Source: a virus
Taxonomy: Duplodnaviria > Heunggongvirae > Uroviricota > Caudoviricetes
Virus record (IMG/VR): IMGVR_UViG_2681813268_000005
Reading direction: 5' to 3' (one strand)
DNA: 7,825 nucleotides
Under the pieces are notes generated by a model, which saw nothing but the letters and a program-made list of their open reading frames with translations, was not told where the DNA came from and made no database searches. Within the stretch, counting starts at the first letter, position 1. Every line of letters begins with the position of its first letter. A program made the position numbers and the translations under genes. Positions 1-7,825 of this stretch are shown one piece after another.

Positions 1-121
1 AGAAAAGCCCCAGTTAACATTACGCGTCCGGCAAGACGCTTAACATTAATCTGAGGCTCAATCTATGAACGGCAAATCTAGGTTAGCCTCTTACGTGCCG
101 AAAGGCAAGGAGAAGCAGGCT

Positions 122-277
122 ATGAAGCAGCAAAAGGCGATGTTAATCGCCCTGATCGTCATCTGTTTAACCGTCATAGTGACGGCACTGGTAACGAGGA
201 AAGACCTCTGCGAGGTACGAATTCGAACCGGCCAGACGGAGGTCGCTGTCTTCACAGCTTACGAACCTGAGGAGTAA
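122..277 (+). CDS. hokD: Hok/Gef family type I toxin (small membrane-depolarising peptide), 51 aa
   Basis: Translation MKQQKAMLIALIVICLTVIVTALVTRKDLCEVRIRTGQTEVAVFTAYEPEE matches the HokD/RelF sequence as I recall it; single TM helix plus conserved C-terminal region; AAGGAG SD 106-111 about 9 nt upstream of ATG 122. The ORF track's in-frame extension from 65 is probably not the real start. Confidence 0.85.
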   Translation: MKQQKAMLIALIVICLTVIVTALVTRKDLCEVRIRTGQTEVAVFTAYEPEE

Positions 278-347
278 GAGACCAGGCGGGGGAGAAATCC
301 CTCGCCACCTCTGATGGGTCAGGCATCCTCAATGCACCCACACTTAA

Positions 348-378
348 CCCGCTTCGGCGGGTTTTTGTTTTTATTTTC
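348..378 (+). terminator. Rho-independent terminator downstream of hok
   Basis: Stem CCCGC (348-352), loop TTCG, stem GCGGG (357-361), followed by TTTTTGTTTTTATTTTC. Confidence 0.6.
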
Positions 379-385
379 AACGCGT

Positions 386-415
386 TTGAAGTTTTAGATG
401 GTGCCGGAATAGAAT
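386..415 (+). promoter_or_regulatory. Candidate sigma70 promoter for the downstream rem-like/DUF968/rusA/Q gene string
   Basis: TTGAAG (386-391), 18-nt spacer, TAGAAT (410-415); sits directly after the hok terminator and about 80 nt upstream of the next CDS. Motif match only. Confidence 0.35.
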
Positions 416-497
416 CAAAAATACTTAAGTAGCGCGCAGGGAGAAGAGGGATGGACCCCGAACAGGGGAGTGCTATTTATCTGGAAGGATTCTGTTG

Positions 498-779
498 ATG
501 AAAATCGAAGAATTACGTGAAATTTTTAGTGAAGATGGCCTCTATACTGTGCGCGTTGAGAATGGCGCTATTGTCAGCCACTGCCTTCCAGACTACACAA
601 TTCTGATAATTCAGCCGTCTTTGCCAGCAGGCACGGGCGGCGCTCTCACGCATTTAAATCTGATTGGTACCAGCATCCCCCATGCACTGAAGAACAGGCC
701 GAATGGCTCATTCAGTGTTACCGCAGGCGCGGATGCGAGGTTAAAAAAGCCCTTAGCCTCGACTACCGTCACTGGATAA
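498..779 (+). CDS. Small hypothetical prophage protein, in the position of rem in Qin-like prophages (hok - rem - ydfU order)
   Basis: ORF with AAGGA SD (485-489) 8 nt before ATG 498 (the track's 495 start is a TTG); N-terminus MKIEELREIFSEDGLYTVRVENGAIVSHCLPDY looks protein-like, the C-terminal third is low complexity. Assignment by synteny only. Confidence 0.4.
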   Translation: MKIEELREIFSEDGLYTVRVENGAIVSHCLPDYTILIIQPSLPAGTGGALTHLNLIGTSIPHALKNRPNGSFSVTAGADARLKKPLASTTVTG

Positions 780-854
780 TCTCCGTCAGGCTCCCTTACT
801 CCGAACGGCCAACGCGTCCGTCCCGCACATTCCAGCAACGGATCTGGAGGTAAT

Positions 855-1913
855 GTGCGGGTATTACTTCGACCTGTTCTGGTACCGGAACTCGGTCTGG
901 TTATCGTTAAGCCAGGCCGTGAATCAATGTCAGCATTCCATAACGGCAGAATACTGGTGGAGCCGGAACCAAAAAGCATGCGTAATCTGCCGTCCGGGGT
1001 CGTTCCTGCCGCTCGCCAGCCGCTGGTGGAAGACAAAACATTGCTGCCGTTTTTCAGTAACGCACGGGTGATTCGTGCTGCTGGTGGTGCTGGTGCATTG
1101 TCTGACTGGCTGTTGCGCCATATTAAATCCTGCCAGTGGCCACACGGCGATTATCATCACAGCGAAACCGTCATTCACCGTTATGGTACCGGCGCAATGG
1201 TGTTGTGCTGGCACTGCGACAACCAGCTGCGTGACCAGACATCCGAATCACTCGGGCAACTTGCTCATCAAAACCTGTCAGCATGGATGATTGACGTCAT
1301 CGGTCACGCAATAAGCGGTACGCAGGAGCGTGAATTATCTCTGGCTGAATTATCCTGGTGGGCGGTCCGCAATCAGGTGGCGGACGCGCTACCGGAAGCG
1401 GTATTACGTCGTTCGCTGGGGTTGCGTGCGGAAAAAATTCGCTCTGTGTACAGTGAAAGCGACATCATACCGGGAGAGCAGACAGCCACCAGCATACTGA
1501 AGCAGCGCACAAAAAATATTGCGTTACTGCCTCACGTCCACCAGCAACAGAACCCACCACAGGAAAAGACGGTGGTCAGCATTGCCGTTGATCCGGAGTC
1601 ACCGGCTCAGTATCTCCAGCGCCAGAAATCACAACGGGAAGAGATGCCTGTATACACGCGCTGGGTAAAAACGCAGAAATGCATGACGTGTGGCAATCAG
1701 GCAGATGATCCGCATCACATCATTGGTCATGGACTGGGAGGGATGGGAACAAAGGCTGATGATTTGTTTGTTATTCCGTTATGCCGTAAATGCCGTAACG
1801 AACTACATGCCGGAGTAAAAGATTTTGAAGAGAAACACGGCAGTCAGCTGTTGTTGCTGATTCGTTTTTTAATGCACGCGAGAAATTCGGGTGTTCTGAA
1901 GTGGAAAGCATAA
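855..1913 (+). CDS. DUF968-family prophage protein (YdfU-like) with a C-terminal Cys/His cluster
   Basis: 352-aa ORF; C-terminal CMTCGN...DPHHIIGHGLGG...CRKCRNELH motif typical of YdfU-type proteins found upstream of Q in Qin-like prophages; stop TAA 1911-1913 abuts the rusA ATG. Start uncertain: GTG 855 has GGAGG only 4 nt upstream; ATG 927 and ATG 978 are alternatives. Confidence 0.6.
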   Translation: MRVLLRPVLVPELGLVIVKPGRESMSAFHNGRILVEPEPKSMRNLPSGVVPAARQPLVEDKTLLPFFSNARVIRAAGGAGALSDWLLRHIKSCQWPHGDYHHSETVIHRYGTGAMVLCWHCDNQLRDQTSESLGQLAHQNLSAWMIDVIGHAISGTQERELSLAELSWWAVRNQVADALPEAVLRRSLGLRAEKIRSVYSESDIIPGEQTATSILKQRTKNIALLPHVHQQQNPPQEKTVVSIAVDPESPAQYLQRQKSQREEMPVYTRWVKTQKCMTCGNQADDPHHIIGHGLGGMGTKADDLFVIPLCRKCRNELHAGVKDFEEKHGSQLLLLIRFLMHARNSGVLKWKA

Positions 1914-2294
1914 ATGACTGAACGCATAGAATTTGTTTTGCCTTACCCGCCAACGGTGAACACTTACTGGCGTCGTCGTGGCAGCACATATTTTGTATCA
2001 AAAGCCGGGGAGCGTTATCGCCGGGCAGTGGCGCTTATTGTTCGCCAGCAGCGGCTGAAATTAAGCCTGTCCGGAAGGTTGGCAATAAAAATTATTGCAG
2101 AACCACCGGATAAGCGCCGCCGTGACCTGGACAATATTCTGAAAGCGCCGCTGGATGCGCTGACGCATGCGGGGTTGCTAATGGACGATGAGCAGTTTGA
2201 TGAAATCAATATCGTTCGTGCTCAGCCAGTATCTGGTGGACGTCTGGGGGTGAAGATTTACCCCATAATGCTTGAAGGGCAGGTCAAAAAATGA
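1914..2294 (+). CDS. rusA: RusA-family Holliday junction resolvase (crossover junction endodeoxyribonuclease)
   Basis: 126 aa; LPYPPTVNTYWRRRG N-terminus and DKRRRDLDN...DDEQ acidic catalytic motifs characteristic of RusA; typical size; ATG immediately follows the upstream stop. Confidence 0.85.
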   Translation: MTERIEFVLPYPPTVNTYWRRRGSTYFVSKAGERYRRAVALIVRQQRLKLSLSGRLAIKIIAEPPDKRRRDLDNILKAPLDALTHAGLLMDDEQFDEINIVRAQPVSGGRLGVKIYPIMLEGQVKK

Positions 2295-3112
2295 AACTGG
2301 AAGATTTACCGAAATACTACTCCCCAAAATCCCCCGGCCTGACTGATGCATCGGCCTCAACGTCGAAAGATGCGCTGAGTATCACTGATGTGATGGCCGC
2401 GCAGGGCATGACACAGAATCGGGCTGAGATGGGGGTTTCTGCGTTCCTTGGGAAAATGGGCATTAGTATGAATGACAGAGAGCGGGCAACAGAATTGCTG
2501 ACAGAATATGCACTCAGTCGGTGTGATCGCGTGGCGGCGTTAAGAAAACTCCCGGCAGAAATAAAACCGGCAGTGATGCGTATTATGGCTTCGTATGCGT
2601 TTGAAGATTATGCCCGTAGCGCGGCGAGCAAAAAACAGTGCCCCTGCTGTCACGGAAAAAAATTTATTGAAAGCGAGGTTTTTACAAACAAGATCCAGTA
2701 TCCGGATGGTAAGCCGCCGGTATGGGCAAAGTGTACGAAAGGTGTGTATCCGTCTTACTGGGAAGAATGGAAAAAAGTCAGGGAGGTGGTAAAAGTTGCC
2801 TGTCCGGAGTGTGGCGGAAAGGGTGAGGTTTCCACCGCCTGTAAGGATTGCCGTGGGCGTGGTGTCGCCATTCATCGTGAAGAGTCGGTAAAACGTGGTA
2901 TGCCTGTTATCAGAGACTGCCAGCGTTGTGGTGGTCGTGGCTGTGAAAGGCTGCCATCAACGGAGGCATTTAATGCCATATGCAAAGTGACGAGTGCTAT
3001 CACGCTTGATACGTGGAAAAAATCAGTGAAACGCTTTTACGATACGTTGGTGGTTCGGTTTGACATTGAAGAGGCATGGGCGGAGCGGCAGTTAAAGAGG
3101 GTAACGCGATAG
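2291..3112 (+). CDS. Late-gene antitermination protein Q (lambda-Q family, 273 aa, expanded zinc-binding region)
   Basis: N-terminus MKLEDLPKYYSPKSPGLTD...ITDVMAAQGM parallels lambda Q (MRLESVAKFHSPKSPMMSD...GTDVMAAMGM, from memory); one degenerate and three perfect CxxCxGxG motifs; ATGA start/stop overlap with rusA; followed directly by a lambda-like PR'/qut/tR' module. Confidence 0.8.
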   Translation: MKLEDLPKYYSPKSPGLTDASASTSKDALSITDVMAAQGMTQNRAEMGVSAFLGKMGISMNDRERATELLTEYALSRCDRVAALRKLPAEIKPAVMRIMASYAFEDYARSAASKKQCPCCHGKKFIESEVFTNKIQYPDGKPPVWAKCTKGVYPSYWEEWKKVREVVKVACPECGGKGEVSTACKDCRGRGVAIHREESVKRGMPVIRDCQRCGGRGCERLPSTEAFNAICKVTSAITLDTWKKSVKRFYDTLVVRFDIEEAWAERQLKRVTR

Positions 3113-3117
3113 TGTTG

Positions 3118-3168
3118 TTGATTTTTCCCGAATCTGTGGTAAATTTGCTCTAACGATGGGCGTTTTAT
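3118..3168 (+). promoter_or_regulatory. Late promoter PR' with Q-utilisation (qut) region and sigma70-dependent pause element
   Basis: TTGATT (3118-3123), 16-nt spacer, extended -10 TGgTAAATT (3137-3145); AACGAT -10-like pause inducer at 3152-3157; the stretch GGTAAATTTGCTCTAACGATGGG closely resembles lambda PR' GGGTAAATTTGACTCAACGATGGG (from memory). Predicted TSS near 3152. Confidence 0.65.
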
Positions 3169-3194
3169 GCCTGACGTTAGAAGATTTTTTACAC

Positions 3195-3216
3195 CCCGCC
3201 GCCTGGCGGGTTTTTT
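3195..3216 (+). terminator. tR'-like rho-independent terminator of the short PR' leader RNA
   Basis: CCCGCC (3195-3200), loop GCCT, GGCGGG (3205-3210), then TTTTTT (3211-3216); about 60 nt downstream of the predicted TSS. Confidence 0.65.
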
Positions 3217-3338
3217 ATGACTGAAATCGCGTCAGTACAGTAAACGCGCTGGTGGCGGTGAATACCTGTCTTTCAGCTTGCTGGCTTTTTCGACAAGAGT
3301 TATTGGTGTGTCACGTTAACCGGAAAAGGGAAAAAGAC

Positions 3339-3536
3339 ATGCTAAAACAGCAGGATATGACAGAAACCGCCAGAGTGGTGTTTAATGAATTAAGCGTTAC
3401 CGAACCGGCGACAGTCGGGGAGATAGCGCAGAATACTTACCTTTCACGCGAACGCTGCCAGTTAATACTGACCCAGCTGGTTATGGCGGGTCTGGCAGAC
3501 TATCAGTTCGGTTGTTACAGACGCCTTCCGCAGTGA
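3339..3536 (+). CDS. 65-aa hypothetical protein, possible small winged-helix/HTH DNA-binding protein
   Basis: ATG 3339 preceded by a purine-rich GGAAAAGGGAAAAAGAC; segment ATVGEIAQNTYLSRERCQLILTQLVMAGLADY has helix-turn-helix character; an identical 65-aa ORF recurs at 4576-4773. The track's longer 3252 start is a GTG extension not conserved in copy 2. Confidence 0.55.
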   Translation: MLKQQDMTETARVVFNELSVTEPATVGEIAQNTYLSRERCQLILTQLVMAGLADYQFGCYRRLPQ

Positions 3537-3550
3537 AGGCTTTTTTATTT
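3523..3550 (+). terminator. Rho-independent terminator overlapping the orf65 stop codon
   Basis: GCCTTC (3523-3528), loop CGCAGT, GAAGGC (3535-3540), then TTTTTTATTT. Confidence 0.55.
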
Positions 3551-3563
3551 GTGGTAAATGGGC

Positions 3564-3594
3564 GGCTGGTGGGTGTTAGGGGCACCCACCAGCC
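3564..3594 (+). repeat. Perfect 12-bp inverted repeat (hairpin, 7-nt loop) in the leader upstream of the methyltransferase gene
   Basis: GGCTGGTGGGTG (3564-3575), loop TTAGGGG, CACCCACCAGCC (3583-3594); no U-tract follows; preceded by TGTGGTAAATGGGCGG, which resembles the PR' extended -10. Confidence 0.6.
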
Positions 3595-3686
3595 ATCTGC
3601 TCATGCGTTGGGTTCACAAGCAAACCTCAGGCCCACTGCTTTGCGCAAAAGCAGAATGAGCCTATCAGAGACAGGCTTAATGATCC

Positions 3687-3803
3687 ATGCTTAATACTGT
3701 AAAAATATCCAGTTGCGAGTTAATCAACGCCGACTGCCTGGAATTTATCCGGTCGTTACCCGAAAATTCTGTTGACCTGATAGTCACGGACCGGCAGAAA
3801 TAA
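3687..3803 (+). pseudogene. N-terminal stub of the DNA methyltransferase gene (38 codons, then out-of-frame stop)
   Basis: 3687-3792 matches the 5' end of the full methyltransferase gene (4924-5029) with one substitution; homology ends at 3792, where the sequence switches to Q-gene sequence; the methyltransferase frame stops at TAA 3801-3803. Confidence 0.7.
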
Positions 3804-4351
3804 AACCGGTAGTGATGCGCATTATGGCTTCGTACGCTTTTGAGGATTATGCCCGCAGCGCAGCGAGTAAAAAGCAGTGCCCTTGTTGCTATGGGGAAAA
3901 ATTTATTGAAAGCGTAGTTTTTACAAACAAGGTCCAGTATCCGGATGGTAAGCCGCCGGTATGGGCAAAGTGTACGAAAGGTGTGTATCCGTCTTACTGG
4001 GAAGAATGGAAAAAAGTCAGGGAGGTGGTAAAAGTTGCCTGTCCGGAGTGTGGCGGAAAGGGTGAGGTTTCCACCGCCTGTAAGGATTGCCGTGGGCGTG
4101 GTGTCGCCATTCATCGTGAAGAGTCGGTAAAACGTGGTATGCCTGTTATCAGAGACTGCCAGCGTTGTGGTGGTCGTGGCTATGAAAGACTACCATCAAC
4201 GGAGGCATTTAATGCTATATGCGAGGTGACAAACCAGATAACACGCGCGTCATGGGAAAAAACAGTTAAGAAATTTTATGATGCGCTGGTGACCCGGTTT
4301 GATATTGAAGAAGCATGGGCTGAGCGGCAGTTAAAAAAGGTAACTAGGTAA
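3793..4351 (+). pseudogene. 3' fragment of a second, divergent Q antiterminator allele (C-terminal ~180 residues, lacks N-terminus)
   Basis: Homologous to 2554-3112 of the full Q gene; central segment (3941-4180 vs 2701-2940) appears nucleotide-identical, flanks diverge (about 17 aa substitutions by eye, including Cys to Tyr in GGRGCERLP to GGRGYERLP). The track ORF 3812-4351 begins at an internal GTG; no native start or RBS. Confidence 0.7.
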
Positions 4352-4356
4352 CAAGG

Positions 4357-4407
4357 TTGATTTTTCCGGAATCTGTGGTAAATTCGTCATAACGATGGGC
4401 GTTTTAT
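4357..4407 (+). promoter_or_regulatory. Second PR'/qut copy (divergent allele)
   Basis: TTGATT (4357-4362), 16-nt spacer, TGgTAAATT (4376-4384), AACGAT pause element 4391-4396; differs from copy 1 at several positions in the initial transcribed region. Confidence 0.6.
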
Positions 4408-4433
4408 GCCTGACGTTAGAAGAGTTTCTACAA

Positions 4434-4455
4434 CCCGCCGCCGAGCGGGTTTTTT
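4434..4455 (+). terminator. Second tR'-like terminator
   Basis: CCCGC (4434-4438), loop CGCCGA, GCGGG (4445-4449), TTTTTT (4450-4455). Confidence 0.6.
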
Positions 4456-4575
4456 ATGACTGAAATCGCGTCAGTACAGTAAACGCGCTGGTGGCGGTGA
4501 ATACCTGTCTTTCAGCTTGCTGGCTTTTTCGACAAGAGTTATTGGTGTGTCACGTTAACCGGAAAAGGAAAAGAC

Positions 4576-4773
4576 ATGCTAAAACAGCAGGATATGACAG
4601 AAACCGCCAGAGTGGTGTTTAATGAATTAAGCGTTACCGAACCGGCGACAGTCGGGGAGATAGCGCAGAATACTTACCTTTCACGCGAACGCTGCCAGTT
4701 AATACTGACCCAGCTGGTTATGGCGGGTCTGGCAGACTATCAGTTCGGTTGTTACAGACGCCTTCCGCAGTGA
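4576..4773 (+). CDS. 65-aa hypothetical protein, second copy (identical protein to 3339-3536)
   Basis: Identical translation; a 2-nt indel just upstream removes the spurious N-terminal extension seen in copy 1, supporting the ATG as the true start. Confidence 0.55.
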   Translation: MLKQQDMTETARVVFNELSVTEPATVGEIAQNTYLSRERCQLILTQLVMAGLADYQFGCYRRLPQ

Positions 4774-4787
4774 AGGCTTTTTTATTT
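4760..4787 (+). terminator. Rho-independent terminator after orf65 copy 2
   Basis: GCCTTC (4760-4765), loop CGCAGT, GAAGGC (4772-4777), T-run. Confidence 0.55.
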
Positions 4788-4800
4788 GTGGTAAATGGGC

Positions 4801-4831
4801 GGCTGGTGGGTGTTAGGGGCACCCACCAGCC
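4801..4831 (+). repeat. Second copy of the 12-bp-stem hairpin
   Basis: GGCTGGTGGGTG (4801-4812), loop TTAGGGG, CACCCACCAGCC (4820-4831); identical to 3564-3594. Confidence 0.6.
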
Positions 4832-4923
4832 ATCTGCTCATGCGTTGGGTTCACAAGCAAACCTCAGGCCCACTGCTTTGCGCAAAAGCAGAATGAGCCT
4901 ATCAGAGACAGGCTTAATGATCC

Positions 4924-5982
4924 ATGCTTAATACTGTAAAAATATCCAGTTGTGAGTTAATCAACGCCGACTGCCTGGAATTTATCCGGTCGTTACCCGA
5001 AAATTCTGTTGACCTGATAGTCACGGACCCGCCGTACTTTAAAGTGAAGCCTGAGGGCTGGGATAACCAGTGGAAGGGCGACGATGATTACCTGAAGTGG
5101 CTGGACCAGTGTCTGGCGCAGTTCTGGCGGGTGCTGAAACCTGCCGGAAGTCTTTACCTGTTCTGTGGTCATCGCCTGGCATCTGATATCGAAATCATGA
5201 TGCGTGAACGCTTCAGTGTGCTGAACCATATTATCTGGGCGAAGCCGTCCGGACGCTGGAACGGATGCAACAAGGAAAGCCTGCGGGCGTATTTCCCCGC
5301 CACAGAGCGCATTCTGTTCGCGGAACATTATCAGGGGCCGTATCGTCCGAAAGATGCCGGGTATGCGGCGAAGGGCAGTGCACTGAAACAGCATGTGATG
5401 GCCCCGCTGATTTCTTACTTTCGTGATGCGCGAGCTGCCCTGGGGATAACGGCAAAACAGATTGCAGATGCCACAGGAAAGAAAAACATGGTGTCGCACT
5501 GGTTCAGTGCCGGTCAGTGGCAGTTGCCGAATGAAAGCGATTATCTGAAATTACAGGCGCTGTTTGCCCGGGTGGCAGAAGAGAAGCATCGGCGTGGTGA
5601 ACTGGAAAAGCTCCACCACCAGCTGGTGGATACGTATACCTCACTGAACCGGCAGTATGCGGAGCTGCTGAGTGAATATAAACATCTGCGGCGGTATTTT
5701 GGCGTGACGGTGCAGGTGCCGTATACCGATGTGTGGACGCATAAACCGGTGCAGTTCTATCCCGGGAAACATCCGTGCGAAAAACCGGCAGAAATGCTGC
5801 AGCAGATAATCAGCGCTAGCAGTCGTCCGGGTGACCTGATTGCAGATTTTTTCATGGGGTTGGGTTCGACAGTGAAAGCGGCACTGGCGCTCGGGCGTCG
5901 TGCAATTGGCGTTGAGCTGGAGACTGAACGTTTTGAGCAGACGGTTCGGGAAGTACAGGATTTAGTCAGCCAGAACGGATGA
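4924..5982 (+). CDS. DNA methyltransferase, beta-class N6-adenine/N4-cytosine family (orphan; no restriction endonuclease gene in window)
   Basis: 352 aa; catalytic DPPY motif (VTDPPYF) near the N-terminus and AdoMet-binding FxGxG (DLIADFFMGLGST) near the C-terminus, the beta-class motif order (IV before I); the location between Q and the tRNA cluster is typical of lambdoid and Stx-type prophages. Confidence 0.85.
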   Translation: MLNTVKISSCELINADCLEFIRSLPENSVDLIVTDPPYFKVKPEGWDNQWKGDDDYLKWLDQCLAQFWRVLKPAGSLYLFCGHRLASDIEIMMRERFSVLNHIIWAKPSGRWNGCNKESLRAYFPATERILFAEHYQGPYRPKDAGYAAKGSALKQHVMAPLISYFRDARAALGITAKQIADATGKKNMVSHWFSAGQWQLPNESDYLKLQALFARVAEEKHRRGELEKLHHQLVDTYTSLNRQYAELLSEYKHLRRYFGVTVQVPYTDVWTHKPVQFYPGKHPCEKPAEMLQQIISASSRPGDLIADFFMGLGSTVKAALALGRRAIGVELETERFEQTVREVQDLVSQNG

Positions 5983-5984
5983 TA

Positions 5985-6013
5985 TTGAAGAATTAATTAC
6001 GCGTCGTTATTAT
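5985..6013 (+). promoter_or_regulatory. Candidate sigma70 promoter of the tRNA operon
   Basis: TTGAAG (5985-5990), 17-nt spacer, TATTAT (6008-6013); 9 nt before the first tRNA; overlaps the methyltransferase stop codon. Confidence 0.5.
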
Positions 6014-6022
6014 GCGGCTCCC

Positions 6023-6098
6023 GGCCCTTTAGCTCAGTGGTGAGAGCGAGCGACTCATAATCGCCAGGTCGCTGGTTCAAATCCAGCAAGGGCCACCA
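6023..6098 (+). tRNA. ileZ: tRNA-Ile2 (anticodon CAU, presumably lysidine-modified; reads AUA)
   Basis: Hand-folded cloverleaf: acceptor GGCCCTT/AAGGGCC, D-arm GCTC/GAGC, anticodon loop CTCATAA, T-arm GCTGG-TTCAAAT-CCAGC, encoded CCA; close to E. coli ileX rather than an elongator Met tRNA. Confidence 0.9.
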
Positions 6099-6105
6099 TC
6101 ACATA

Positions 6106-6182
6106 CCGCCATTAGCTCATCAGGAAAGAGCGCCAGCCTTCGAAGCTGGCTGCGCGGGGTTCAAGTCCCCGATGGCGGTCCA
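6106..6182 (+). tRNA. argN: tRNA-Arg (anticodon UCG)
   Basis: Cloverleaf: acceptor CCGCCAT/ATGGCGG, anticodon stem CCAGC/GCTGG, loop CTTCGAA, T-arm CGGGG-TTCAAGT-CCCCG, encoded CCA. Gene name by analogy with the ileZ-argN-argO clusters of lambdoid/Stx phages. Confidence 0.85.
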
Positions 6183-6195
6183 TTATCTGCATCAT

Positions 6196-6272
6196 GCGTT
6201 GTTAGCTCAGCCGGACAGAGCAATTGCCTTCTAAGCAATCGGTCACTGGTTCGAATCCAGTACAACGCGCCA
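6196..6272 (+). tRNA. argO: tRNA-Arg (anticodon UCU; reads rare AGA/AGG)
   Basis: Cloverleaf: acceptor GCGTTGT/ACAACGC, anticodon stem ATTGC/GCAAT, loop CTTCTAA, T-arm ACTGG-TTCGAAT-CCAGT, encoded CCA. Confidence 0.85.
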
Positions 6273-6299
6273 CACTTATTTTCCCTGGCTCGCTTTTGA

Positions 6300-7319
6300 G
6301 AGTTAATCAACGCCGACTGCCTGGAATTTATCCGGTCGTTACCCGAAAATTCTGTTGACCTGATAGTCACGGACCCGCCGTACTTTAAAGTGAAGCCTGA
6401 GGGCTGGGATAACCAGTGGAAGGGCGACGATGATTACCTGAAGTGGCTGGACCAGTGTCTGGCGCAGTTCTGGCGGGTGCTGAAACCTGCCGGAAGTCTT
6501 TACCTGTTCTGTGGTCATCGCCTGGCATCTGATATCGAAATCATGATGCGTGAACGCTTCAGTGTGCTGAACCATATTATCTGGGCGAAGCCGTCCGGAC
6601 GCTGGAACGGATGCAACAAGGAAAGCCTGCGGGCGTATTTCCCCGCCACAGAGCGCATTCTGTTCGCGGAACATTATCAGGGGCCGTATCGTCCGAAAGA
6701 TGCCGGGTATGCGGCGAAGGGCAGTGCACTGAAACAGCATGTGATGGCCCCGCTGATTTCTTACTTTCGTGATGCGCGCGCGGCCCTGGGGATAACGGCA
6801 AAACAGATTGCAGATGCCACAGGAAAGAAAAACATGGTGTCGCACTGGTTCAGTGCCAGTCAGTGGCAGCTACCGAACGAAAGCGATTATCTGAAATTAC
6901 AGTCGCTGTTTGCCCGGGTGGCAGAAGAGAAACATCAGCGCGGTGAACTGGAAAAGCCCCACCACCAGCTGGTGGATACGTATACGTCACTGAACCGGCA
7001 GTATGTGGAGCTGCAGAGTGAATATAAGCATCTGCGGCGGTATTTTGGTGTGACGGCGCAGGTGCCGTACACGGATGTGTGGACACATAAACCGGTGCAG
7101 TTCTATCCCGGGAAACATCCGTGCGAAAAACCGGCAGAAATGCTGCAGCAGATAATCAGCGCAAGCAGTCGTCCGGGAGACCTGGTTGCAGATTTTTTTA
7201 TGGGCTCAGGTTCAACGGTAAAAGCGGCACTGGCGCTCGGGCGTCGTGCGATTGGCGTTGAACTGGAGACCGGACGTTTTGAGCAGACAGTCAGGGAAGT
7301 TCAGGATTTAATCGTTTGA
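6300..7319 (+). pseudogene. Second DNA methyltransferase copy, 5'-truncated (first ~10 codons and start codon missing), divergent 3' half
   Basis: Homology to the full gene begins at 6300 directly after an in-frame TGA (6297-6299); no ATG before the DPPY codons (6372-6383); first canonical start is GTG 6390, downstream of DPPY. The first ~480 nt are nearly identical to the full copy, the remainder diverges (e.g. DLVADFFMGSGST, different C-terminus). Confidence 0.6.
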
Positions 7320-7330
7320 AACGGATGAGA

Positions 7331-7359
7331 TTGCAGAATTAATTACGCACCATTATTAT
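7331..7359 (+). promoter_or_regulatory. Candidate sigma70 promoter of the second tRNA operon copy
   Basis: TTGCAG (7331-7336), 17-nt spacer, TATTAT (7354-7359), 9 nt before the tRNA. Confidence 0.5.
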
Positions 7360-7368
7360 TCTGCTCCC

Positions 7369-7444
7369 GGCCCTTTAGCTCAGTGGTGAGAGCGAGCGAC
7401 TCATAATCGCCAGGTCGCTGGTTCAAATCCAGCAAGGGCCACCA
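7369..7444 (+). tRNA. ileZ: tRNA-Ile2 (anticodon CAU), second copy
   Basis: Appears sequence-identical to 6023-6098. Confidence 0.9.
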
Positions 7445-7451
7445 TCACATA

Positions 7452-7528
7452 CCGCCATTAGCTCATCAGGAAAGAGCGCCAGCCTTCGAAGCTGGTTGCG
7501 CGGGGTTCAAGTCCCCGATGGCGGTCCA
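7452..7528 (+). tRNA. argN: tRNA-Arg (anticodon UCG), second copy
   Basis: Same cloverleaf as 6106-6182, with one substitution in the variable loop (TTGCG vs CTGCG). Confidence 0.85.
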
Positions 7529-7541
7529 TTATCTGCATCAT

Positions 7542-7618
7542 GCGTTGTTAGCTCAGCCGGACAGAGCAATTGCCTTCTAAGCAATCGGTCACTGGTTCGA
7601 ATCCAGTACAACGCGCCA
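7542..7618 (+). tRNA. argO: tRNA-Arg (anticodon UCU), second copy
   Basis: Appears sequence-identical to 6196-6272. Confidence 0.85.
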
Positions 7619-7632
7619 CACTTATTTTCCCT

Positions 7633-7658
7633 GGCTCGCTTTTGTGGGCCTTTTTTTT
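7633..7658 (+). terminator. Rho-independent terminator of the tRNA operon
   Basis: GGCTCGC (7633-7639), loop TTTT, GTGGGCC (7644-7650; 7-bp stem with two G-U pairs), then TTTTTTTT (7651-7658). The matching sequence after the first tRNA cluster is interrupted inside the loop at about 6296. Confidence 0.55.
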
Positions 7659-7825
7659 AAATGTCTCACAATTCAGGCGGTTGACTGTTGTCTGGTTTGC
7701 GGGGAGTTTGTTAAAAGAAACTGGCATGGTGAATCCCCCTGTGCGGAGGGGCAATCAGCGAGTAGGTATATGGGATAATCGCGGATTCAGGTGCTGGTAC
7801 TGAATTCACCGGGAGGCACCCGGCA

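Follow-up and report, generated by a model that had tools for sequence, protein, structure and literature searches.

The closest described counterparts of the methyltransferase considered here are the paralogous enzymes M.EcoGI and M.EcoGII. [quoted passage not shown] 2018, PMC5778455). M.EcoGI matches it at 333 of 349 positions, with the remaining 16 differing, and shares with it the lack of specificity, the prophage location and the silence in the lysogen. Phage 1720a-02 encodes an enzyme described as 'very similar', and forced expression of an enzyme of this family is toxic (Murray et al., PMC5778455).

Against this background we analyzed a stretch of DNA of 7,825 nucleotides (the window, by which we mean the whole of that stretch), which is the entire contig CXEW01000199.1 of the draft S. 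sonnei assembly GCA_001260755.1. The account that we consider likely, taken as a whole, is that its intact methyltransferase is a member of the M.EcoGI/M.EcoGII family placed in a Q-controlled late module, and that the repeated features around it are an artifact of assembly. The features on which this account draws are collected in Table 1.

Table 1. Features of the window, with positions counted from its first nucleotide
Feature	Position	Strand	Details
Piece 1	1-3792		hok to complete Q, orf65, first 106 nt of methyltransferase
DUF968/HNH protein	855-1913		PHROGs; standard lambdoid nin-region gene
Complete Q antiterminator gene	2291-3112	+	273 aa; PF03589 Antiterm E 1e-49; phrog_127 'anti-termination protein Q-like'
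PR'-like late promoter, copy 1	3118-3160	+	read from sequence; aligned with lambda PR'
tR'-like intrinsic terminator, copy 1	3195-3216	+	CCCGCC-GCCT-GGCGGG then TTTTTTAT; hairpin in MFE fold
orf65, copy 1	3339-3536	+	small conserved ORF between the two terminators; 198-nt CDS in complete genomes; phrog_331, unknown function
Second terminator-like hairpin, copy 1	3523-3546	+	GCCTTC-CGCAGT-GAAGGC then TTTTTTAT; overlaps orf65 stop
A-type methyltransferase, first 106 nt	3687-3792	+	orphaned 5' end; alignments; translation MLNTVK...IVTDRQK*
Junction J1	3791-3793		methyltransferase nt 106 joined to mid-Q, 2-nt (CC) overlap
Piece 2	3791-6298		3' end (561 nt) of a different Q allele; orf65; intact methyltransferase (352 aa); tRNA trio
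Second, different Q allele, 3' 561 nt	3791-4351	+	'T-type' over 3810-3932; identical to S. sonnei allele from 3933
PR'-like promoter, copy 2	4357-4399	+	directly upstream of intact methyltransferase; same motifs at 4357, 4377, 4391
tR'-like terminator, copy 2	4432-4457	+	terminator scan and MFE fold
orf65, copy 2	4576-4773	+	ORF listing
Second terminator-like hairpin, copy 2	4760-4783	+	terminator scan
Intact methyltransferase gene, S. sonnei allele	4924-5982	+	352 aa; ATG 4924, stop 5982; M.EcoGI/GII family
Sigma70-like promoter before tRNA genes	5985-6013	+	TTGAAG-17-TATTAT; conserved in second copy
tRNA trio, copy 1	6023-6272	+	tRNA(CAU) (tRNA-Ile in RefSeq), tRNA-Arg(UCG), tRNA-Arg(UCU)
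Junction J2	6299		single A between tRNA-downstream sequence (ends 6298) and methyltransferase nt 31 (6300)
Piece 3	6300-7825		A-type methyltransferase nt 31 to end, three tRNAs, downstream sequence
A-type methyltransferase, nt 31-1050	6300-7319	+	alignments; 'second allele' of the initial annotation
tRNA trio, copy 2	7369-7618	+	

The class of the intact enzyme is readily established. In a Pfam profile search its 352-residue product matches PF01555 (N6_N4_Mtase) with an E-value of 7.9e-42 and 144.1 bits, against a curated threshold of 26.7 bits, and the alignment over residues 29-340 takes in profile positions 1-219 of 221. The catalytic DPPY of motif IV (residues 35-38, nt 5026-5037) lies N-terminal to the SAM-binding FxGxG of motif I, here FMGLG (residues 310-314, nt 5851-5865), with the recognition region between them, which is the beta-class order that the initial annotation had recognized. 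The PHROGs category of the protein is 'DNA methyltransferase', and NCBIfam, in which it has no dedicated model, gives matches to models of other adenine methyltransferases that all stay below threshold. By sequence, the closest solved structures are those of M.BceJIV (8urk/9c3u), M.RsrI, CcrM, M1.HpyAVI and M.MboIIA. For an AlphaFold model of only moderate confidence (pLDDT 67), each of the 38 best matches in the PDB is a beta-class methyltransferase, but the TM-scores are 0.16-0.41. With M.BceJIV, M.RsrI, CcrM and M.MboIIA the protein has in common the motif order and, apparently, the catalytic Rossmann core; however, its identity to them is only about 20% and confined to the two motif regions, and its central ~170 residues, a helical linker followed by a helix-turn-helix bundle, have no counterpart in those sequence-specific enzymes.

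The further claim that this is an orphan enzyme also holds: there is no restriction-endonuclease-like gene in the window, nor within 10 kb in the complete S. sonnei and E. coli loci that carry the same gene. Thus, no cognate endonuclease adjoins it in the manner of a type II restriction-modification system, and its neighbors are instead Q, orf65, tRNAs, IS elements, an esterase and a holin. The open reading frame is, accordingly, confirmed as a beta-class amino-methyltransferase without a partner endonuclease.

As for its family, the intact allele is identical to M.EcoGII at 324 of 348 positions (about 93%), and the second allele of the window, once reconstructed, at 331 of 348 (about 95%). 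Both values are floors, since the M.EcoGII reference (GenBank EGT69837.1) was taken as machine-read from Table S1 of the SUPREM paper (PMC11551740), and this copy has a few obvious OCR errors; an exact look-up of the hand-corrected sequence in the protein collection returned no match, and the identity therefore rests on the machine-read table. Like M.EcoGI and M.EcoGII, which fall in the same range of 349-352 residues, the protein has DPPY followed by FxGxG, is prophage-borne and has no partner endonuclease. Its N-terminal 146 residues are the same as those of M.EcoGII, bar one probable OCR difference, whereas its C-terminus is 3 residues longer and of different sequence (…DLVSQNG vs …DLIV). 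The initial annotation had held that the target specificity could not be read from the sequence, and had regarded a close match to an already characterized phage methyltransferase as telling against its reading. M.EcoGII is such a match, and at this degree of identity to a non-specific adenine methyltransferase the specificity may after all be inferred from the sequence: the product of the intact gene is probably a non-specific N6-adenine methyltransferase of the M.EcoGI/M.EcoGII family.

The protein is also far from rare. Its exact sequence, which goes by the database name 'site-specific DNA-methyltransferase [Shigella sonnei]', occurs in 4,314 index blocks representing thousands of S. sonnei assemblies, including that of S. 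sonnei 53G (HE616528), and the wider family comprises 2,679 clusters at E<=1e-20 across the Enterobacterales. No peptides of the protein were found in the full texts of papers. The family is characterized, the gene context is the usual one of lambdoid and Stx prophages, and databases already contain the exact protein in thousands of copies; the locus therefore has little value as a discovery, being a known type of enzyme where one would expect to find it.

Not all of the residues that are invariant in the family are kept by the intact allele. First, it carries S313L (codon nt 5860-5862). The position concerned is flanked by the two motif I glycines and is serine in 100% of the family cluster representatives with a recognizable motif (115/115; 108-115 scored), the most distant of which are about 74% identical to the window protein. 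Second, it carries S197G (codon nt 5512-5514) at a position that is serine in 99% of the family. Neither substitution is found in M.EcoGI or M.EcoGII, and the neighboring A-type allele keeps both Ser313 and Ser197. One might, therefore, suppose that the intact gene is a decaying one in a degraded S. sonnei prophage, its product catalytically impaired by the exchange of serine for leucine in the SAM-binding loop and by the loss of a second serine in the DNA-binding helix-turn-helix region. The conservation of the two positions speaks for this, as does the state of the host prophage, which is riddled with IS elements (IS1, IS3-family and IS21 genes within 10 kb). However, the reading frame is of full length and its exact sequence is maintained in the thousands of assemblies mentioned above, the formal FxGxG pattern is still present in the form FMGLG, and the residue between the glycines is variable in other methyltransferase classes. 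The AlphaFold model was left out of this assessment because its confidence is only moderate. On balance we think it doubtful that the allele is impaired; still, because its prophage is so IS-riddled, a reduction or loss of its activity has to be taken seriously. Were the S. sonnei allele indeed such a variant, it might be inactive, attenuated and hence tolerated, or altered in its use of cofactor or substrate. M.EcoGII is commercially used and is a widely used footprinting enzyme, and S313L in the common S. sonnei allele could be of use if a natural attenuated variant of that enzyme were wanted.

The setting of the intact gene agrees with the late, Q-dependent read-through control that the initial annotation had proposed. 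The complete Q protein is identical to CST13703.1 [Shigella sonnei]. At 6-34 nt past its stop codon at 3112 there is a PR'-like promoter made up of a -35 element TTGATT (3118-3123), an extended -10 element TGG-TAAATT (3137-3145, with TAAATT at 3140-3145) and the pause-inducing AACGATGGG (3152-3160); the spacer measures 16 nt when TGG is counted with the 13 nt before it. Lambda PR' (GGTAAATTTGACTCAACGATGGG, from NC_001416) aligns with it in the -10 element and the pause element. The promoter is absent from the results of a consensus scan because it scores below the threshold (8 of 12). A first, strong intrinsic terminator follows ~45-65 nt past the predicted PR' start, and a second one at the end of orf65. 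All of these, namely Q, PR', the terminators beginning at 3195, 3523, 4432 and 4760, and the late genes, are on the + strand, as in the lambdoid late-operon layout. In the consensus scan, nothing resembling a promoter turned up from Q to the methyltransferase, and the sole promoter that it gave in the region from Q to the tRNAs (5985-6013) lies past the methyltransferase. The combination of PR', two terminators preceding the gene and no intervening promoter therefore supports expression by Q-dependent read-through. The Q protein here is of the PF03589, QuuQ-like type, a different family from lambda Q, and PR' was identified by its similarity to lambda; hence, both the engagement of Q at this PR' and the dependence of methyltransferase expression upon it are best taken as probable. 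Likewise, the two terminators and the lack of a consensus promoter suggest that the gene would be silent in the lysogen. This late-control architecture agrees with the silence in the lysogen and the toxicity upon forced expression that were reported by Murray et al. (PMC5778455). A comparative paper on pR' (PMC6266700) leaves the methyltransferase unmentioned.

Complete genomes show how this region is ordinarily arranged. There, the order is hokD, (rem), DUF968/HNH, RusA, Q, a 65-aa ORF, the methyltransferase, tRNA-Ile(CAU), two tRNA-Arg genes, an esterase and the lysis genes, with each element of this hok-to-lysis layout in a single copy and no endonuclease among them. The 65-aa ORF, orf65, has only a weak Pfam match to the TrmB wHTH. 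In prophages with a different Q allele, Q/PR' is directly joined to the tRNAs, and because of this we regard orf65 and the methyltransferase as an optional module.

Putting these observations together, we posit the following scheme. The M.EcoGI/M.EcoGII family consists of SAM-dependent beta-class enzymes that work as homodimers, are encoded by lambdoid prophages and methylate adenine at N6 in any sequence context, and the optional orf65-methyltransferase module is placed in the late operon, with PR' and its tR' on one side and the tRNA genes of the phage on the other. In the lysogen, transcripts from PR' would end at tR' and at the second terminator, so that the toxic methyltransferase is absent. 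Upon induction, Q would load on RNA polymerase at PR' and allow read-through of both terminators, and the methyltransferase might then coat the replicating phage DNA with m6A before it is packaged. Such methylation of the progeny DNA may afford protection against many adenine-sensitive restriction systems.

The window departs from the complete genomes in its tandem layout. The initial annotation had noticed a second, divergent allele downstream of the intact one and raised the possibility that it has a different specificity. Methyltransferase sequence is certainly present there, amounting to the 3' 97% of an A-type gene, but the gene is incomplete: with A6299, the base at the junction, codon 10 becomes an in-frame TGA, and the first usable start, GTG 6390, lies downstream of DPPY. 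The missing 5' end is found at 3687-3792, upstream of the intact gene, in a reading frame that stops 3 codons past J1. When 3687-3716 is put together with 6300-7319, a 349-aa protein is rebuilt that is 348/349 identical to WP_000935509.1 of E. coli 55989; its C at gene nt 30 (position 3716) is rare but occurs naturally, for instance in E. coli H3. The rebuilt protein is 96% identical to that of the intact allele, with 12 substitutions over 349 aligned residues. One could still conceive of a sequence-specific orphan methyltransferase represented by two alleles with different specificities, given that 7 of these 12 differences fall at residues 197-263, that is, in or just past the predicted recognition domain (residues 160-237). 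However, M.EcoGI and M.EcoGII differ at more positions than that, 16, and are both non-specific, and the two window alleles, at 93-95% identity to M.EcoGII, lie inside the divergence range of that pair. We therefore find this alternative very improbable, and a different specificity of the second allele, as such, is unlikely.

Relative to complete genomes, the window resolves into three collinear blocks. Over 3933-6298 the middle one agrees with the S. sonnei prophage at every position (100% identity), and the third agrees with E. coli TUM10008 at 99.7%. The two non-homologous junctions between the blocks do not recur in the independent data searched: 5,426 complete E. coli genomes contain neither J1 nor J2, nor do the GTDB representative genomes, and searches with the junction-specific ORFs (a 309-aa truncated methyltransferase and a 178-aa truncated Q) led only back to this contig or to unrelated truncations and contig-edge fragments that lack these junctions. 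The 178-aa product of the partial Q is itself found at contig edges in other assemblies. In an independent assembly, moreover, a contig (L026) matches 3815-6298 at 100% identity and then runs on into the normal downstream sequence rather than J2. We also considered whether Q might have been naturally truncated at its 5' side, at 3791 beside intQ, and rejected this, as the truncated Q in another contig (L023) reaches 45 nt further upstream.

The breakpoints have peculiarities of their own. The segment 3717-3792 is exactly repeated at 6300-6375, which makes an identical block of 76 nt, the left edge of which is one base past a genuine paralog SNP, gene nt 30 being C in the first copy (3716) and T in the intact gene (4953). 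As for the middle piece, its last base, 6298, directly precedes a position that is C in the S-type and T in the A-type, and its first base, 3791, directly follows one that is T in the T-type Q but C in the A and S types. The junctions thus coincide exactly with what would be node boundaries in a de Bruijn graph. The length of the block equals k-1 for an odd k of 77, a reading that is post hoc. Pipelines combining Velvet, SSPACE and GapFiller use k at 66-90% of the read length, and their authors admit to false joins by the greedy joiners (PMC5320598). The block together with its SNP edge has the look of two Velvet-style contigs flanking a bubble. Offsets arising from Velvet node descriptors, i.e. 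pieces lacking their first k-1 bases, were rejected because they do not fit the breakpoints, while full-contig boundaries at k = 77 do.

The tandem could, in principle, be real: microhomology-mediated template switching or illegitimate insertion between co-resident prophages might have placed a 2.5-kb segment, running from the partial Q through orf65 and the methyltransferase to the tRNAs, inside the resident methyltransferase gene, disrupting it and duplicating PR', orf65 and the tRNA trio. The junctions show the 2-3 nt of microhomology (CC at J1, TTG at J2) that is expected of such events, de Bruijn assemblers rarely create non-homologous joins unaided, and the same contig is on record for two samples. 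Weighed against this are the facts that three of the four breakpoints adjoin independent paralog SNPs, that the flanking 'duplication' is exactly 76 nt long and begins one base past one of them, that neither junction turned up in the complete genomes or in the contigs reached via the junction-specific ORFs, that the independent contig shows the inserted piece continuing normally, and that scaffolders and gap closers are known to make joins of this kind. A genuine tandem is, thus, quite unlikely. Even the broader proposition that one of two departures from our account holds, i.e. either that the S. sonnei allele is a natural variant with altered properties or that the contig is correct by virtue of a template switch between prophages, strikes us as improbable.

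Given junctions absent from the complete and representative genomes searched, the 76-nt block, the breakpoints abutting SNPs, the normal continuation in the independent contig and the known false joins, we conclude that the tandem layout is very probably a short-read assembly or scaffolding artifact that joins two prophages. By this reading the piece from 3791 to 6298, from the 3' part of Q to the tRNAs, would belong to one prophage and would have been set inside the homologous region of another in the same S. sonnei genome. The tandem 'second allele' would thus need read-level support before it is given any biological reading. The genome of the isolate has two family members under the artifact and the rearrangement readings alike. 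It probably carries them as two separate, complete genes, in which it would resemble O104:H4, with its two paralogs M.EcoGI and M.EcoGII within one genome.

In terms of known systems, the locus finds its parallels at two levels. First, its control region resembles the late operon of lambda (Q, PR', qut, tR' and 6S RNA) in having the promoter right after Q, the TAAATT -10 element, the AACGATGGG element and then an intrinsic terminator. However, the Q protein of the window belongs with PF03589/QuuQ rather than with lambda Q and has a zinc-finger region resembling that of DnaJ, the terminator is placed much closer to the promoter, at about 45-65 nt, and there is a second terminator past orf65. 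Second, its gene order is that of Stx-converting and other lambdoid phages (1720a-02, phiP27 and the Stx2a phages LC5678xx), in which a methylase similarly lies between Q/PR' and tRNAs of the ileZ-argN-argO type, with 87-94% nucleotide identity over the stretch from orf65 through the methyltransferase to the tRNAs; for phage 1720a-02 the identity to the window over 3195-7659 is 94.7%. The DNA methylase of these Stx-converting and related lambdoid phages is itself 94% identical to M.EcoGII at the protein level. What sets the two apart lies beyond the tRNAs, where the Stx phages have stx, whereas the window and its S. sonnei relatives have IS elements, an esterase gene and lysis genes and no toxin.

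The 140 nucleotides or so between the second terminator, a hairpin overlapping the orf65 stop, and the methyltransferase ATG form a leader whose predicted fold is very stable: the segment at 4784-4935 (152 nt) has a minimum free energy (MFE) of -63.4 kcal/mol (z -3.97), a stability reached by 0 of 200 shuffles. Within it lies a perfect 12-bp inverted repeat (GGCTGGTGGGTG…CACCCACCAGCC), which the predicted fold lengthens to a bigger hairpin, and the start-codon region of the methyltransferase is itself base-paired in the MFE structure. Such a leader structure could exert translational or processing control over a toxic methyltransferase.

Features of the contig (first and second copies where repeated)
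Feature	First	Second	Remarks
hok/sok locus	1-277		type I toxin-antitoxin
Q	2291-3112		273 aa
orf65	3339-3536	4576-4773	conserved 65-aa protein, phrog_331
Leader	3547-3686	4784-4923	second terminator to methyltransferase ATG
Extra PR' core	3550-3559	4787-4796	TGTGGTAAAT; directly behind orf65 terminator
sigma70-like promoter	5985-6013	7331-7359 (homologous)	TTGAAG or TTGCAG, 17 nt, TATTAT
First tRNA of trio	6023-6098	7369-7444	tRNA-Met (CAT) per ARAGORN
STnc100 sRNA	7695-7825		Rfam match 91 bits, gathering score 47

The leader also carries a second copy of the core of PR', the predicted Q-dependent late promoter; judging from its hexamer, TAAATG, whose final base is G, this copy is probably not an active promoter. 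Upstream, between tR' (the first terminator behind PR') and the second terminator, orf65 encodes a product with a weak TrmB-type winged-helix match. The methyltransferase always has orf65 alongside; some prophages lack both genes, the one in E. coli SK1144 being an example.

Across the whole gene-position index, the identical Q protein occurs on only two contigs, namely the present one and, in GCA_013945005.1, a second that is 1.9 kb long. The 3' end of the gene (2943-3205) resembles the E. coli strain TUM10008 and the remainder is near S. sonnei. Q would be either a rare mosaic or a further product of the mixing of paralogues in short-read assemblies.

At the start of the contig, the Hok ORF (start at 65 or 122, end at 277) matches PF01848 with an E-value of 3e-23. 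The sok antisense RNA, truncated by the contig edge, for that reason scores slightly under the gathering threshold, at 55.6 bits. The strong STnc100 match lies 3' of the second tRNA trio and is clipped by the contig end.

The sigma70-like promoter sits immediately 3' of the methyltransferase stop, with the tRNA trio 10 nt further on; this placement between the two suggests that the phage tRNAs may be transcribed without need for Q. Besides its first gene, which the RefSeq annotation, differing from ARAGORN, calls tRNA-Ile, the trio holds two tRNA-Arg genes (UCG and UCU). Together the three constitute the classic rare-codon tRNA trio, the first gene being, on the RefSeq reading, the lysidine-modified ileZ type known from Stx and lambdoid phages.
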